Counted from the stretch's first letter, positions 2,321-8,678 are shown. The stretch is 10,574 nt of DNA from a virus (IMGVR_UViG_2703718859_000027), one strand, 5' to 3'. Notes: generated by a model from the letters alone, not told the origin. A program made the numbers and translations.

Positions 2321-4759
2321 TTAAAAATCAGCCTGACTCGGGAACAGTTTTTGCCAGATAGCTGAAACGTATTTTGCCTGGTAACGCGCATCGTGCAGGG
2401 CATTATGGCGTTCACCCTCAAATGTGGTGACGTTGCGGGCATCGAAATCCATCACCAACCCCAGAGCGACCATCGTTCTTACATCGCGATCATTGGTGTA
2501 ACGCCACGGGCAGGGGATCTCCTGCCGTTCATATGAACGGCGTAAAATCACGTTGTCGAAGTTGGCTCCATTTCCCCAGACCTGAACAAAAAACTCACCG
2601 GAGTTTTCGTCTATAAATTCCCGTAATTGTAAAAGCGCATCATCAAGCGGTATTCGATCAGCTAAAATGGCGGCACGGGCTTCGCCAGAGCGTTGAAGCC
2701 ACCATTCGATGGTGCTTATGTCTACAGTGCCGCCACATGTACCCATATCAATTATTTTGCTGAATTCAGGCCCCTGCTCTCCGGTTTGTGGATCGAAAAA
2801 TACAGCGCCTATTGAGGCTATTGGTGCGTCAGGATTTTTGCCCATTGTTTCAAGGTCAATCATCAGATGGTGCCACAACCTGTTGGTGGATGTGATTTCA
2901 CGATGACCGTTCACCTTAATTAAGGGATTTGCTGTCTCGCCTGTTTCATTATTGCCATTGGCATGTTGATCGCCTTCGGTGCACTCCTTGTTCGGGAGTC
3001 CGGCACTTTCCATTTCCTCCGGATCTTTTTCCCGTGCTTCATCCTGGCTTTCTTCGTTGAATGTCTCCTGGTAGGTTGCGTCACCCATCACTGCGCCACA
3101 ATCAGGGCAGTTACCACCACCAGTCTGATTGCATGCGGTACAAACTTTTTCCTCTTCCTGTTGCACTACTGGTTCAGGTTGTTTCGTTTCTGGCTCGTTT
3201 TGTAACGCATTTGGGCTGTTTTGTTCCGCTTTCTGACCGTTCTGTTCCGTTTCTTGCTGGTTCTGGTTCACAGAATCGCAGGTTTCAATCCCCTTAACCC
3301 ATTTTGGATCATTCGGGTCGCTAATCCCTTCAACAAACTCACCACGAGAAGCGGCAAGCAATTTGTCGGCATCTGGTCGACTGATGTCTGCTGCCTCCAT
3401 AATTTTATTTACTTCTTCAGCAGTAACTTTTACCTGTGACTTGTCATCCAGCGGCTGCGGGTCCTGATGATGTTCAACTGTATCCGCTGCCATTGTTTCA
3501 GCCGTTGCCTGTTCATCTGCCATTGCGCCAGATGGTTGCGGGTTTTCTTCATTATTTTTTTCTTCTTCTGTTTTGCACTCAGCAGCCAGTCCGCCGTTAA
3601 TTTCTTCCAGGATATCTTTTTCCGGTGTATGCCGGGCAGCCGTGAGAGTTTCAGTTGTGGGATTCTCGTGATCGGTCTCTGTCAGGTTGGCATTGATATA
3701 CCCCTGAAGACGTCCCGGGTAGTGATAAAACTCAGGGGGGGCGCTCCGGATAAGTGCAAAAATAGCTGCGCGGGAATAGTCCAGGATACCAGGGGTTGCG
3801 CGAAGTGCTGGGGACCATTCCCTGAACGGACTTTCTTTTTTCAGGACGATTTCTTTTGCGCGACGATAAACGCTCACGGGTATTTCATAAATATTAAAAT
3901 CCATCGGAAGTGTGGCTGCTGCAATCTCCACATCCAGAGTATCGAGGGTGTGTACTAAATCAGGATTACGATCCGTTTTATTTCCGCCACCGGCATTTGC
4001 ACCGGAAGCCGTGCGGGTGATGCGAGAAACACGATTTCCTTTCATCCACTCTTTTGTCAGCAGACCTCGATCGGTATAGTCAGCGTCCAGGTATGCTTCG
4101 AAAAAAGCAGTCATTAACCCCAGACTGGAATTAACGGGATTAGGGAAAACTTTGTCTGTGTCGCGTACCAGTTTATGAAGGTCGCGAATCTCCAGCGGGT
4201 CGAGCAGCTTTGTGTTGTGGGAAATAGCCAGGGCAGTAACAGCCGGCAGTTCTTCAGCTCGTGCGATATGTAATGCCTGAAGTTCTTCCCGTGAAACGTG
4301 CGTTACCGGTTTTTCGCTGCCATGTTGCGCAAGCCAGCGAATGGGCAGTTCCTGACCGGAAATCGGCAGGAGCATATTATCCTCAATCTCAGCCATGTTT
4401 TCGCCATTGACGTTGGTATTGTCAGTGCTGGCTGGTTTGTCCTGAACTGAGGGGGAGGGCGCTATAAATATCATTGTGATGCCATCTTCCCCGCCTTTTT
4501 CATAGCGGTTGCAGAATTCAGTATCAAACACGCCTTCCGGTGGAAGGTCATTCACAACGGGGAAATGGACGCGGACGGGTTTTTTGAAATCATCTGCGTC
4601 GTAGCCTGCCTCGTCCATTGCAACAACGCACCGTGAGATGGCAACAGATAATTTTTTTGCTGTAGTCCAGTAAAAACCTCCTTTAATCCCAAGGCGTTTT
4701 CTGACCTTGTCATTTTTTGCTTCGCAATATAGCGAAAATTCTTCTTTATCAGTGCTCAT
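2321..4759 (-). CDS. Large prophage exonuclease: unknown N-terminal domain, acidic disordered linker with CxxC...CxxC zinc-ribbon-like motif, C-terminal DnaQ-like DEDDh 3'-5' exonuclease domain
   Basis: 812-aa ORF with ATG at 4759..4757 and GAGGT Shine-Dalgarno 6 nt upstream. C-terminal motifs MIDLETMG (Exo I, DxE), [12 protein letters not shown] (Exo II) and [10 protein letters not shown] (Exo III, H-x4-D). Central low-complexity region rich in E/Q/N/T, with [16 protein letters not shown]. Occupies the exo/recE slot between xis and the kil-like genes. Confidence 0.85.
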
Positions 4760-5235: not shown

Positions 5236-5793
5236 TCAACAATGAATTTTTAGTAATTGCTCCACAGTCATATTTTTAATTGCGCTCCGGTTTACAAGAG
5301 TCCAGCCTTGTTTCTCCAGATAAAACTGGAAGGTATCCAGGGTGCAGACCATTGCACCATCAGGAACGGTTTCAGTGAATTTGATATTGCCGTGTTCGTC
5401 GAGACGGATAACCAGGGTACGTCCGTCCCCGTGAATCATTTTGTCGGGAGACGGGGCGTTATTCTGGCGCAGTTCTTTCTCCATGCGATCGAACTCAGCG
5501 ATGTAGGCTTCTTTAAATGCAGCGGCTTTTTTGCCGGTGAAGCCCATCACCAGGAAAACGAAGCCGTTTTTGGTGATTTGGTACATAGGGAGTTTGCGCC
5601 CGGTTGAGTCGGTATATTCACTGGGCGAAAAATTTCGCTCAGTGAATTCTGCTGAACAGTCTAGACGTGAAATTTTTGCCAGTACATCTTTGTGTGGTTT
5701 CCGGAAATACTCGGCAACAGCTAAAGAGGATGTAACAGCACGCCCATTGGCGATAGTAATTTCAGGGTGAGAAAGGGCAGGGATAGTAGCCAT
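5236..5793 (-). CDS. Rha-family phage regulatory protein (N-terminal pRha domain plus about 85-aa C-terminal domain)
   Basis: Segment ITIANGRAVTSSLAVAEYFRKPHKDVLAKI...KLPMYQITKNGFVFLVMGFTGKKAAAFKEAYIAEFDRME matches the Rha/pRha domain (memory of PF09669). Start chosen at ATG 5793..5791 (MATIPALSHPE...) because a perfect GGAGG lies 8 nt upstream (5806..5802). The track ORF extends in frame to an ATG at 6087, so a 283-aa alternative exists. Confidence 0.8.
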   Translation of the reverse strand: MATIPALSHPEITIANGRAVTSSLAVAEYFRKPHKDVLAKISRLDCSAEFTERNFSPSEYTDSTGRKLPMYQITKNGFVFLVMGFTGKKAAAFKEAYIAEFDRMEKELRQNNAPSPDKMIHGDGRTLVIRLDEHGNIKFTETVPDGAMVCTLDTFQFYLEKQGWTLVNRSAIKNMTVEQLLKIHC

Positions 5794-5957
5794 GATGGCA
5801 GCCTCCATGATGAATTTCATTAACTCACCACCGGAGGTAGCAATCTCATGGGTGGTGAGACGCACAGGGTTGCTACAACCGGTCATCATGGAACCCGGCC
5901 AGCCTTGCGGCTGCCCTGCACGCCCCACCATAATCTGAATGTGGCTGTGCATTACGC

Positions 5958-5982
5958 ATAAAAAAACCGCCTGAGCGCGGTT
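5958..5982 (-). terminator. Candidate rho-independent terminator (minus strand)
   Basis: Minus-strand RNA reads AACCGC-GCUCAG-GCGGUU followed by UUUUUAU. It lies inside the in-frame upstream extension of the Rha ORF and downstream of dicF. Confidence 0.45.
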
Positions 5983-6202
5983 ATGCGCCATGATGAACAT
6001 CGGGGTAGCAATCCCGGCACCCGCTTTATGAGGTGCAGGTGCACTATAATTCCACCCGTTCTGGTTTTCAATAGCTACATTCAACATTTTCTCTTACCTT
6101 TCATCACCGAAGTGAACTTTGTCGATGCAGTGCCTGGTGCCTCCAGGTGACGTTAACCAGTTAACAATTAACGCCGGAATACAGAAGTATGCCCGTTACG
6201 CC

Positions 6203-6227
6203 CCGTAAAAGACCACTTTACGGTTTT
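6203..6227 (+). terminator. Terminator-like hairpin plus T-run on the plus strand
   Basis: CCGTAAA-agaccac-TTTACGG followed by TTTT on the plus strand (7-bp stem). No plus-strand gene is upstream, so its role is unclear. Confidence 0.3.
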
Positions 6228-6278
6228 AACTGTTCCGCGTGCGCTTAGCCGCATTCACCGCATCACAAAATTCACTTT

Positions 6279-6331
6279 AAAAAGGGTGGCAGAGCAGTCA
6301 CGGAGTAGAACTGATGCCACCAAAGACTACA
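6279..6331 (-). ncRNA. dicF: DicF-like sRNA (ftsZ-targeting antisense sRNA of Qin-type prophages); 5' seed differs from K-12 DicF
   Basis: Minus-strand sequence CUUUGGUGGCAUCAGUUCUACUCCGUGACUGCUCUGCCACCCUUUUU matches the 3' two-thirds of K-12 DicF (…GUUUGGCGGUAUCAGUUUUACUCCGUGACUGCUCUGCCGCCC, from memory), including the terminal hairpin GGUGGCA…UGCCACC plus U-run. Sits upstream of dicB as in Qin. The 5' boundary is approximate. Confidence 0.8.
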
Positions 6332-6799
6332 CATGGGTATTGTGGCGGGGCTGTCACTTAAGCGTATGGTCAACCTGACAACCCGGTGCATTTTCTGGAG
6401 CAATGGAGGAAACCCCAGCCATACTTACCGCCGCGCCATTTCGCGGATTGCCACAACCGGAAGCGCACGGTCGAAGAAATCTAACGACAAGCCTTCTAAG
6501 GGAAAGAGCTTCGCCGTACGCTTTCGCGTTGTGTGCCTGCTTTTAACCACGTCAGGCGAGGTGGTTTCCGTCGTTCCCCAACGACAGGAAATCTGTATAA
6601 TCTGGATATCCCCAACAACAGGAAGGTGTTTTATATGGTGGTTCAAAAGAATTGTTCAGGTACTGGTAAGCCTGCGGACAGGGCGGACATTCCGAATACC
6701 AGGAAACATATACCTGAGAAAAACATACGACCAAAACCATCTCCAGCTCCTTCAGAGGAGAGGGGGAACAGCAACAATCAAGCAAGCAGGTGATGATAT

Positions 6800-7246
6800 A
6801 TGGACCGGGATGATATTCTTGACAGGGTTTTATATGGCTATTTTCTTGAACAACTATTCTCTGTAGCGACTGGTCGTCTCGATAAACTTCTCTCAGTGGT
6901 GAGTATTATCCTCGGTTCATCTGTCATTGGTGGATTTATTCCTGAAGTTTCTGGAGTTCTCATTGTTGTGATAGCAACCGTTCAAACGATTTACGGATTC
7001 GGACAAAAGTCAGGTAACGCAATGAGAAAATCCGCAGAATATCTGCAGCTTTATGATGATGCAGAAAAATATTCCGATTCGGAATTGAAAATTCAGTTAA
7101 AGCTTCTGGAAAAAACAGATGATAATATTTGGTCGTCGCTTAAAGATATCGCAATCTTAAAAACCCGGATCAAAATAGGAATCTCCGTAGAACAACAAGA
7201 GAAACTGTCTGCAAAATCCAAATTGATGCGATTCCTTTGTGGTTAG
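6800..7246 (+). CDS. Small two-transmembrane-helix membrane protein of unknown function; candidate superinfection-exclusion / abortive-infection effector (SieB-like position, SLATT-like architecture)
   Basis: 148-aa ORF in an AT-rich segment, with AGGTGA Shine-Dalgarno 6 nt before the ATG at 6800. Two hydrophobic helices (LLSVVSIILGSSVIGGF and GVLIVVIATVQTIYGF) followed by a charged helical tail. Transcribed opposite to the surrounding early-left operon. Confidence 0.7.
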   Translation: MDRDDILDRVLYGYFLEQLFSVATGRLDKLLSVVSIILGSSVIGGFIPEVSGVLIVVIATVQTIYGFGQKSGNAMRKSAEYLQLYDDAEKYSDSELKIQLKLLEKTDDNIWSSLKDIAILKTRIKIGISVEQQEKLSAKSKLMRFLCG

Positions 7247-7344
7247 GAATACCCAGATTGTTAAAGATCATGCCGGATGCTTACCCGTGTCCGGCGAACG
7301 TATTCCACTTCGCCTGTGGAGAACTCTTTAATTACTAACCTTCA

Positions 7345-7497
7345 TCAGTCAGAGTTTCTTGCTAACCAGCGACGCGCGCCAGCTGCGGTTTTAAACGTTT
7401 TGCTTCTGGTATACGTCATCGCGGTAAACGTGCCGTCCTGGTTGGGAAACACGCCGCATACCAGAGATTCGTTGTTGCCAAGATTGAGCGTATCCAT
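7345..7497 (-). CDS. Small early-operon protein (50 aa), possibly YdfB-like (Qin prophage small protein)
   Basis: ATG at 7497..7495 with GAGG 5 nt upstream. Translation MDTLNLGNNESLVCGVFPNQDGTFTAMTYTRSKTFKTAAGARRWLARNSD, stop TGA at 7347..7345. Below the 60-aa cutoff of the supplied track. First gene downstream of the PL-like promoter; the family call is from uncertain memory. Confidence 0.5.
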   Translation of the reverse strand: MDTLNLGNNESLVCGVFPNQDGTFTAMTYTRSKTFKTAAGARRWLARNSD

Positions 7498-7770: not shown

Positions 7771-8058
7771 TCAGATAGAGAAGGGAAATTGTCGGCGAGC
7801 ATGTGTCACGCTTACAATCTCAATGCTTGAAGCAGCTACTCTGTACAGGATTATGTAGTTAGGGTGGGTCACTATCTCTCTCAACCCAGAAACCCGTTCG
7901 CTTGGTGGATATAGGTACGGATGCTCAGATAGAGGTAATACCGATGTTTCAATACGTATTTTAAGTCTACGCGCTGCCGGTGGGTTCTCCTTGGCGATGT
8001 AAGTTATGATCTGACGCAAATCATCGCGAGCAGATGGTAGCCATAAAATGGGCAACAT
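7771..8058 (-). CDS. parE: ParE/RelE-superfamily toxin (ParE2-like) of a three-component prophage toxin-antitoxin module
   Basis: 95-aa ORF MLPILWLPSARDDLRQIITYIAKENPPAARRL...YIILYRVAASSIEIVSVTHARR with the ParE/RelE pattern. Its start overlaps the antitoxin stop (ATGA at 8058). Confidence 0.88.
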   Translation of the reverse strand: MLPILWLPSARDDLRQIITYIAKENPPAARRLKIRIETSVLPLSEHPYLYPPSERVSGLREIVTHPNYIILYRVAASSIEIVSVTHARRQFPFSI

Positions 8059-8249
8059 TACTCGCTCCTGTTAGTTACAGCAATTTGAGCAATAAGATTT
8101 TCCATTTCAGCTATTACCTCGTCATGTGGAATTGCGGGGCGAGGGTCTGCAAGGCTTGACGCTACTTTAGCGCGCAACCATTCGTTGTAACTGTTTTCTT
8201 GTTCGATAGTTTCGAATTCTGAAACTATCGGAGAAAGGGCTGTACTCAT
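8058..8249 (-). CDS. paaA2: PaaA2-like antitoxin (small, intrinsically disordered ParE antitoxin)
   Basis: 63-aa ORF MSTALSPIVSEFETIEQENSYNEWLRAKVASSLADPRPAIPHDEV..., matching my memory of E. coli O157 PaaA2. Immediately upstream of and coupled to the ParE-like gene. Confidence 0.82.
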   Translation of the reverse strand: MSTALSPIVSEFETIEQENSYNEWLRAKVASSLADPRPAIPHDEVIAEMENLIAQIAVTNRSE

Positions 8250-8276: not shown

Positions 8277-8678
8277 TCACGCCCGGCGGCTTTTTTGTGC
8301 CGCCAGCCACCGGGCAATGGTTTCTTCCATTGATTTTTTTTTGTCTTTGATTTCTTGAAGCATTTTTTCTTGGTCCTCCTCAGGGAACGCACTAAAAGCC
8401 TGGAGTAATTCGCGTTGGCGAGGACCAATTTTCATCGTGTTAGGGGTGAACATTTGCTCCCCCTCTTCAGGAGGCAATAAAAACCAATGCAACGGATGCC
8501 CTGTAACCTCAACCAGTTTATCCAAACTTGAGGCTTTAGGTGTAGCCTTACCGCTGACCCATTGTTGAACAGTTTGTTGTGTCACACCAATTCTACGGGC
8601 CAGCTCAGCCTGGCTCCATCCAGTTTCCTGAAGAAGCTTGCTGATTCTGTACATCGATACTTCTAGGGCGCTCATCAT
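8277..8678 (-). CDS. paaR2: CI-like prophage repressor, HTH XRE family (PaaR2/RacR-like), no S24 peptidase domain
   Basis: 133-aa ORF with helix-turn-helix LLQETGWSQAELARRIGVTQQTVQQWVSG. Divergent from the cro-like ydaS and heads the antitoxin-toxin operon. Start is ambiguous between the ATG at 8678 (possibly leaderless; TAAAAT lies 7-12 nt upstream) and 8654. Confidence 0.85.
   Translation of the reverse strand: MMSALEVSMYRISKLLQETGWSQAELARRIGVTQQTVQQWVSGKATPKASSLDKLVEVTGHPLHWFLLPPEEGEQMFTPNTMKIGPRQRELLQAFSAFPEEDQEKMLQEIKDKKKSMEETIARWLAAQKSRRA

Follow-up and report, generated by a model that had tools for sequence, protein, structure and literature searches.

The DNA analysed here, referred to as the window, is a 10,574-nt stretch of the viral sequence IMGVR_UViG_2703718859_000027, and the question it raises concerns positions 6332-6799. 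An initial annotation had found no convincing gene in this stretch of about 470 bp, noting a depletion of stop codons, inverted and direct repeats and a perfect TATAAT, and had suggested a structured leader or non-coding RNA, or a decayed gene, possibly acting with the downstream gene for a protein with two transmembrane segments (2-TM). The stretch sits between this opposite-strand 2-TM gene and the small RNA DicF. The present analysis showed that it is composite in origin, and as a whole it is likely to be best explained by three adjoining parts, which are the untranslated leader of DicF, a module related by homology to the region of phages P22 and lambda that holds the sieB promoter and the sas antisense RNA, and a proline-rich micro-ORF. 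The element is known in type, being a sieB promoter/sas module set inside a known dicBF leader, and its wider reuse is the part worth following. A puzzling gene-less stretch is replaced by three explained parts, and the map gains one small gene and one predicted antisense RNA, both previously unannotated.

The blastn search of 6528-6635 against 50,697 phage records (2.3 Gb) detected P22, lambda and many relatives over 6532-6603 with 77-80% identity. The match in P22 (AF217253, 11401-11471) was 79.5% identical over 72 nt with E = 1e-5, and those in the lambda records were 77-78% identical. A P22 record (P22virB-3) labels the matching stretch "promoter, sieB RNA start site", located 38 nt upstream of sieB, and the TATAAT at 6596-6601 of the window aligned with TAAACT of P22, the 3' end of the annotated sieB promoter feature. 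The window, P22, lambda and three other loci were aligned in register. The antisense RNA sas of P22 (P22A-sas) corresponds to the minus strand of P22 nt 11387-11513, 127 nt by RNA-seq (PMC13397905, Table 2). Comparison with the sequence published there showed that it matches the minus strand of the P22 module exactly, running through the anti-start region, leader copy 2, the -10 element, a hairpin with leader copy 1 and two interleaved helices. The minus strand of the window has the layout of this sequenced RNA, and the plus strand shows the same succession of parts as P22 and lambda, from the interleaved helices and the hairpin containing leader copy 1 through the -10 to leader copy 2, the ribosome site and the ATG. 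Judged by these alignments, the stretch at about 6535-6635 and the sieB promoter and sas region of P22 and lambda are homologous. An Rfam 15 scan, which the initial annotation had proposed, gave no match with E ≤ 1 inside 6336-6799, and the sas regions of P22 and lambda gave no match either, indicating that Rfam 15 holds no sas model.

The genetic position of the module is also that of P22 and lambda, with an accessory gene on the opposite strand inside the early-left operon. In both phages, sieB is encoded within the pL operon on the strand opposite to it, flanked by gene 24/N and ral. In the window, likewise, the plus strand encodes the micro-ORF and the 2-TM protein, and the minus strand the repressor, a DUF1391 gene, DicF, dicB, exonuclease and integrase. 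Several features differ. The -10 element of the window is a perfect TATAAT where P22 has TAAACT, and the repeat motif is CCCCAAC(A/G)AC in contrast to ACCCCTACAG in P22 and lambda. The module is located in the dicF leader of a Rac/Qin-type prophage instead of the N-ral interval. The cargo consists of the micro-ORF and the 2-TM protein, not of one gene with a nested start for Esc, so that any translational switch would lie between two cistrons. The module is made up of the following features.

6535-6564, minus strand: two interleaved helices of pseudoknot topology, GCCTG 6535-6539 with CAGGC 6553-6557 and CCAC 6547-6550 with GTGG 6561-6564
6565-6575 and 6580-6590, minus strand: arms of the hairpin beside the interleaved helices, an inverted repeat with 82% complementarity and the loop CCCC on the plus strand, GGGG on the minus strand
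6570-6624, plus strand: sieB-type promoter unit with repeat copy 1 at 6570-6590, TATAAT at 6596-6601 and repeat copy 2 (predicted cargo mRNA 5' end) at 6604-6624
6518-6640, minus strand: predicted sas-like cis-antisense RNA, with ends placed from the homologous 127-nt RNA seen in P22 by RNA-seq

The helices were supported by covariation. In 38 distinct sequences, 98.8% of the cells of the interleaved helices were paired and five of the nine pairs had changed on both sides, a score reached by none of 500 shuffles and also above those of slid controls. Compensatory changes were found in both dyads (loci L063, L016 and L011), and helix pairs in L149, L154 and L156 are G-U on the minus strand only. 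On that strand, loop 1 has 3 nt and the A-rich loop 3 has 7-8 nt, lengths in keeping with a classical pseudoknot of the H type. The corresponding sequence is contained in the published P22 sas RNA, and the interleaved helices are read as the 3' structural domain of the predicted sas-like antisense RNA. The neighbouring hairpin, which on the plus strand has repeat copy 1 as its 3' arm, has a homolog in P22 and lambda (TTCTCGTGT/ACAGCGAGAA), and its stem sequence varied between lineages with the pairing kept.

A second, helix-anchored scan distinguished two forms of the module. In the simple form, the helices are directly followed by TAT.CT, a covarying hairpin with a C/A-rich loop, the ribosome site and ATG. 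In the duplicated form, to which the window belongs, no TAT follows the helices and TAnnnT lies between two C/A-rich leader copies. Each listed variant fits one of the two forms, which supports TAnnnT as the -10 element, and the direct repeat is therefore read as a tandem duplication of a unit of -10 plus leader. The repeat noted in the initial annotation was real and could be lengthened by a repeat search to 21-nt copies (6570-6590 and 6604-6624), 76% identical and 34 nt apart. The same duplicated leader unit is present in P22 and lambda; the repeats flanking the TATAAT are not a new oddity of this locus. The TATAAT itself was confirmed at 6596-6601. One such hexamer in 468 bp on both strands is not rare (about 0.2 expected by chance), and its weight comes from the conservation of TAnnnT at that position in the homologs. 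Transcription is predicted to start near 6608. Conservation of the module ends with repeat copy 2, beyond which cargo-specific ribosome sites and genes follow.

Some variation around the module was also observed. The E. coli strain 2013C-3492 (L007, 2013C-3033-like) carries a 9-bp tandem duplication, AATCTGTAT, at the equivalent of window 6589-6590, which doubles the -10 region into two TATAAT boxes 9 bp apart. On the minus strand, the ribosome site and start codon of a backbone gene often begin 0-35 nt past the helices (e.g., L016, L017, L141, L151, L176 and L058), with an ATG directly after the last helix in a few loci. The interleaved helices might influence expression of the next early-left gene.

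The cargo side of the module begins with a gene that the initial annotation had passed over. The four overlapping ORFs described there were confirmed in the ORF list, and none had a match in Pfam or PHROGs.

6333-6866, plus strand: ORF of 177 aa
6533-6793, plus strand: ORF of 86 aa with a GTG start
6425-6646, minus strand: ORF of 73 aa with a TTG start
6552-6785, minus strand: ORF of 77 aa with a TTG start

The depletion of stop codons was beyond chance, with 23 stops in six frames compared to 36.2 ± 4.1 in 2000 dinucleotide-preserving shuffles, 0.05% of which were as low. The statement that the stretch holds no convincing gene proved incorrect, as the last 52 codons of the dismissed 86-aa ORF correspond to a micro-ORF conserved in 27 of 27 related loci. 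The cargo and its signals are arranged as follows.

6636-6793, plus strand: proline-rich micro-ORF of 52 aa, MVVQKNCSGTGKPADRADIPNTRKHIPEKNIRPKPSPAPSEERGNSNNQASR, the first cargo cistron, with ATG at 6636 and TGA at 6791-6793
6788-6799, plus strand: ribosome-binding region of the 2-TM gene, its AGGTGA (6788-6793) overlapping the TGA of the micro-ORF
6800-7246, plus strand: 2-TM protein gene, 148 aa, the second cargo cistron, matching phrog_6315 (function unknown) with E = 4e-24

A Shine-Dalgarno sequence, GGAAGG (6621-6626), lies eight nt upstream of the ATG at 6636. The proline-rich ORF upstream of the 2-TM homolog carried the motif H-[MVIL]-P...[RKQ]-P-x-P-x-P in all 27 loci, 25 of which were scored by script and two (L017 and L018, with TTG-start ORFs) read by eye. 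The 25 scored loci held 15 distinct micro-ORFs of 27-78 aa as extracted, the two longest including read-through to an earlier ATG. The micro-ORF ends 6 nt before the 2-TM start in the window and 6-18 nt before it in the scored loci. In the first 32 codons, five of the 11 codons changed between the window and L014 were third-position synonymous changes. The micro-ORF was called as a gene in L014 and is annotated in the Providencia phage PSTNGR2lys. On this sequence conservation, 6636-6793 is a genuine conserved micro-ORF. The purine-rich tract noted before the ATG at 6800 was confirmed and turned out to be the 3' end of this ORF together with the 2-TM ribosome site; 6755-6793 encodes the C-terminus ...SEERGNSNNQASR*.

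The 2-TM protein belonged to no Pfam family, had no match in the defence-protein library PADLOC, and showed no similarity to P22 SieB by BLASTP. With neither SieB similarity nor a Pfam family, the cargo is not a sieB gene, and only the control module is shared. Diverged 2-TM homologs (45-68% identity) in Salmonella, other assemblies and the Providencia phage kept the same upstream layout. In PSTNGR2lys (L011, 1400-2950), two module-plus-cargo units stand in tandem on the same strand, the first with a 171-aa protein and the second with the micro-ORF and 2-TM protein, each with its own helices, repeats and -10.

Several observations weigh against reading the module as a sieB promoter with a sas-like RNA. 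Most of the helix pairs were invariant, the covariation amounting to about six independent events and the strand-specific G-U pairs to two or three. The predicted RNA fold was unexceptional (z = -1.2, by a method that cannot score pseudoknots), and a consensus scan of the module found no sigma-70 -35/-10 pair. One review gives sas as 105 nt; a species of that length counted from the RNA-seq 5' end stops just short of the CAGGC arm, and the second helix might thus need the longer 127-nt species. As the cargo is unrelated to SieB and has no match in the defence library, any exclusion role for it is a guess.

The same structures can be read on the other strand, with the helices and hairpin lying in the 5' untranslated region of the cargo mRNA as a regulatory leader (riboswitch, thermometer or protein operator), the 3' arm of the hairpin masking or adjoining the ribosome-binding site, and the promoter upstream of 6535. 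The covarying hairpin in the simple form does end at or in the cargo Shine-Dalgarno sequence (e.g., ATCCTTAAAA/TTTTAAGGAT and TCCTCT/AGAGGA), plus-strand G-T wobbles slightly outnumber A-C in the simple forms, and a small conserved pseudoknot followed by a variable stem resembles an aptamer-plus-platform layout. However, the sequence upstream of GCCTG is backbone-specific and unconserved, indicating no shared promoter there, and in the simple forms the hairpin shares sequence of its 5' arm with the TAT.CT -10, so that this arm would lie outside the mRNA. The loop lengths suit an H-type knot on the minus strand, and no Rfam family matched. The P22 record places the sieB promoter downstream of the helices, and a minus-strand RNA containing the helices has been sequenced in P22; a riboswitch-like pseudoknot on the plus strand was set aside because of these two facts, and a leader of this kind is unlikely.

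The repeats and interleaved dyads could instead be DNA sites for a regulator, acting as operator or activator sites flanking the -10 with no role for an antisense RNA. Their positions would suit this function, since the repeat copies cover the -35/spacer and about +1 to +16, as is typical of repressors, the centre of the GCCTG...CAGGC dyad falls at about -62 relative to the predicted start, and an activator is plausible for a promoter without a -35. The repeat sequences are, however, lineage-specific (CCCCAACAAC, ACCCCTACAG, TTCCACAGTCAA, ACCACAACG and CCCCACCAA) and both copies change together, for which duplication and RNA complementarity are a better fit than one shared protein. The cassettes encode no common regulator and the immunity types of the prophages differ, the simple modules have a single repeat copy, and the compensatory changes in both dyads are what base pairing, but not a fixed host protein, would be expected to produce. 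Sites of this kind alone are accordingly rather improbable, and a sieB-type promoter with a minus-strand sas-like RNA is preferred.

Other candidates for the repeats and helices were rejected. We know of no iteron or two-component box that fits the direct repeats, and their lineage-specific sequences argue against both. The resemblance to integron attC core sites (RYYYAAC) was 6/7 only, with no integrase of that type. The C/A-rich repeats suggested a GcvB target mimic, or AgvB-like anti-small RNA; the AgvB model of Rfam had no match here, and AgvB is located downstream of PR' (PMC4104026). Pas small RNAs were not relevant to the locus. The DNA of the interleaved helices gave weak matches only as a promoter -35, an idea inapplicable to the duplicated form. 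Inspection by eye found no convincing minus-strand -10/-35 for the sas-like RNA inside the micro-ORF, in either the window or P22. Strand assignment from wobbles in the variable hairpins (G-T 38 versus A-C 81) was biased by C/A-rich composition and related sequences and was kept as a weak hint only.

The left part of the stretch belongs to DicF, which abuts it and sets its strand and operon.

6284-6335, minus strand: small RNA DicF, full-length match to Rfam RF00039 (61.1 bits, gathering threshold 48, E = 1e-11)
6336-6534, minus strand: structured untranslated 5' leader of the DicF precursor in a dicBF-type operon, assigned from K-12 homology, indels and fold
6458-6476 and 6509-6526, minus strand: arms of a long imperfect hairpin in this leader, predicted by RNAalifold

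Window 6113-6544 was 80% identical to the ydfC-dicF-dicB spacer of the K-12 Qin prophage (blastn; L003, 3663-4092), and window 7273-7342 aligned with 70 nt just past ydfC in Qin. As K-12 homology resumes there, about 730 bp (6545-7272) comprising the module and cargo is absent from K-12, taking the place of 44 nt of the K-12 spacer, and the homology breaks inside the interleaved helices. Indels of 3, 5 and 14 bp within 6330-6406 among close relatives rule out the 177-aa frame as coding. The operon of K-12 Qin consists of ydfABC, a long untranslated region with dicF, dicB and ydfD (Faubladier 1990, cited in PMC5069750), and DicF is released from the long transcript by RNase E and RNase III processing (PMC5069750). 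By analogy, DicF in this prophage would be processed from a structured untranslated leader transcript. The 200-nt upstream leader and the downstream spacer, both 80% identical, and DicF itself are shared with K-12, as are a DUF1391/ydfA-like gene upstream and dicB with a DUF1482 gene downstream. Unlike K-12, the window lacks ydfB and ydfC and has an isrK/C4/Rha block between dicF and dicB.

The imperfect inverted repeat of the initial annotation is real and is the leader hairpin listed above. It was recovered as a helix (columns 9-26 with 60-79) in the consensus fold of ten related leaders by RNAalifold, and was extendable to 6452-6533 by a repeat search (arms 6452-6462 and 6523-6533), with a hypervariable apical loop. 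The fold also gave a long-range helix of 6339-6346 with 6450-6457. The changes kept in the fold include C-G to U-G and U-A to U-G, which are wobbles on the minus strand only, and only two of the 61 predicted pairs were compensatory, one in the leader helix and one in DicF. The suggestion of a structured leader or non-coding RNA held in that the region is mostly non-coding and structured, but the leader at 6336-6534 is that of the DicF precursor, on the minus strand. As for joint action with the 2-TM gene, part of the region very probably does act on it, the acting element being the sieB/sas homolog and not the structured leader.

A decayed ydfC-like or other gene with frameshifted remnants as stop-poor ORFs, to which the significant stop depletion, the position of ydfC at roughly this place in the K-12 operon and a frameshifted ydfC annotated in one related prophage might point, is highly improbable, as K-12 ydfC (L003, 3324-3542) aligned with nothing in the window including 6332-6799, strain 2013C-3033 has intact ydfC and ydfB to the right of the same cassette, the four ORFs lack Pfam/PHROG matches, close relatives differ by indels that are not multiples of three, and the K-12 homolog of 6336-6544 is an annotated non-coding spacer.

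Minor features of the leader region were also seen. DicF of the window lacks 14 nt just upstream and has a compensatory C-G to U-A change in its terminator stem. Its 5' part, CAUGUGUAGUCUUUGGUGGCAUCAG, differs from that of K-12, UUUCUGGUGACGUUUGGCGGUAUCAG. This DicF may thus have another 5' pairing region and, with it, another range of targets. Phage mEp460 (L012, 2200-2260) and about 15 IMG/VR contigs have the dicF leader joined to a simple one-copy module with other small cargos, such as 66-aa and 106-aa membrane-like proteins. The joining of the leader to differing module forms and cargos indicates that the leader/module junction is a recurrent exchange point.

How the module might work can be considered from P22. 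A sas-driven switch from SieB to Esc in P22 was reportedly described in the abstract of Ranade and Poteete from 1993. The sas RNA pairs with sieB mRNA and shifts translation from SieB to the shorter Esc, by which P22 escapes its own exclusion (reviewed in PMC12197685 and PMC7067206). By homology and analogy we infer for this prophage the promoter activity, the existence and ends of the antisense RNA, translational repression and any part that the cargo plays in exclusion. The -10 at 6596-6601, without a good -35, would in the lysogen drive an opposite-strand mRNA of the micro-ORF and 2-TM gene, beginning near 6608 with a short C/A-rich leader that is repeat copy 2. In lytic growth, leftward transcription would yield a sas-like RNA from about 6640 to 6518. 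The 5' third of this RNA would pair with the micro-ORF mRNA at its leader, Shine-Dalgarno sequence and start codon, and the other two-thirds, consisting of the hairpin and interleaved helices, would act as a scaffold for stability or recognition. First contact with the mRNA could be made by the hairpin loop, in which the anti-leader motif is repeated. As in P22, the RNA may block translation of the first cistron, so that the phage would turn off its own exclusion or abortive function in lytic growth. The 2-TM start lies 165 nt downstream with its own ribosome site, outside the overlap, and it can be speculated that the switch drops the micro-protein and spares the 2-TM protein.

The distribution of the module differed from that of its surroundings. 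Part of the query was present in 4719 of 5426 complete E. coli genomes, window 6545-6625 was matched in 1230 of them (about a quarter), and the rest of the query (6626-6799) in only 85. Beyond E. coli, an IMG/VR pattern scan and a protein-anchored scan of species genomes detected the module widely; of 19 species genomes belonging to other genera of the Enterobacterales, 17 carried it, and the organisms in which it was found included Citrobacter, Kosakonia, Scandinavium, Symbiopectobacterium, Trabulsiella, Kluyvera, Edwardsiella, Buttiauxella, Enterobacter, Erwinia and Serratia symbiotica. It was absent from K-12 CPS-53 and unannotated in the RefSeq prophages inspected. The same stretch of about 100 bp precedes other plus-strand genes, such as those for 114-aa and 171-aa phrog_1244 proteins, one of them in a backbone without dicF. 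For about 180 helix instances in the fetched loci, the first downstream ORFs fell into about 40 clusters, including SieB, phrog_1244 proteins, the micro-ORFs and numerous singletons, among them certainly some spurious ones. We put the number of unrelated cargo families behind the module in Enterobacterales prophages at about 30-40. In the literature library searched, no paper described reuse of the sieB/sas module before other cargos.

This pattern may be compared with prophage morons (e.g., PMC7067206), which are accessory genes with their own promoter, antisense in lytic operons. The present cassette is moron-like in its lysogen-type promoter, its cargo opposite to the operon and its exchange between phage backbones. 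Unlike morons, its 5' control region is a shared, conserved and structured module with a predicted built-in antisense RNA, and it recurs before dozens of unrelated cargos. We tentatively propose, at somewhat less than even odds, that the sieB promoter/sas unit is a portable self-silencing cassette that temperate phages of the Enterobacterales place before dozens of unrelated lysogen genes inserted antisense in early operons, that its RNA would contain a conserved H-type pseudoknot not yet described or modelled, and that in this prophage it would silence the micro-protein and spare the 2-TM protein, as a two-cistron counterpart of the SieB/Esc switch in a new membrane-based system of exclusion or abortive infection. 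If the P22 mechanism generalises, the module would mark genes expressed in the lysogen and silenced in the lytic growth of the prophage itself. It could then be a cheap sequence flag for candidate exclusion or abortive-infection genes and a test bed for antisense control by a pseudoknotted RNA.

The window was identified as the early-left operon, on the minus strand, of a Rac/Qin-type lambdoid prophage from the annotation of near-identical prophages and the minus-strand RNAs. Near-identical prophages in RefSeq have a repressor, DUF1391 protein, DicB, DUF1482 protein, exonuclease, excisionase and integrase on the minus strand, with the 148-aa 2-TM gene as the sole plus-strand gene and nothing annotated between it and dicB/Rha. 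The order in the window on the minus strand is repressor, toxin-antitoxin pair, DUF1391/ydfA-like gene, DicF, isrK/C4/Rha block, dicB, DUF1482, exonuclease, xis and int. Further RNA genes found here were the following.

892-981: tRNA-Ser gene adjoining the integrase gene
5960-6036, minus strand: isrK, full-length Rfam match of 65 bits
5848-5935, minus strand: C4 antisense RNA, full-length Rfam match of 78 bits

A 283-aa ORF (5236-6087, minus strand), annotated in RefSeq as "Rha family phage regulatory protein", overlaps the C4 and isrK matches on the same strand. Because these full-length matches overlap its 5' codons, the first 50 to 80 codons are probably non-coding and the actual start likely lies near MKFIMEAAIMATIP. 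The layout resembles the c4/icd/ant arrangement of P1 and the isrK arrangement of Gifsy-1. Between DicF and isrK, a partial STnc100 match below the threshold (6125-6263, minus strand; 29 bits against a gathering threshold of 47, E = 0.003) falls in the part that corresponds to the dicF-dicB spacer of K-12. A pair consisting of a RelE/ParE-type toxin and a RelB-type antitoxin (7771-8249, minus strand) is flanked by the repressor (8277-8678) and DUF1391 (7345-7497) genes, and its presence in some related prophages and absence in others points to a second variable slot in the same operon. Just past the 2-TM gene, a hairpin, GCCGGATGCTTACCCGTGTCCGGC, at 7275-7298 on the plus strand also stands directly after ydfC in K-12 (L003, about 3561-3630), and could act in both as a bidirectional terminator or as a stabiliser at the right edge of the insertion slot.

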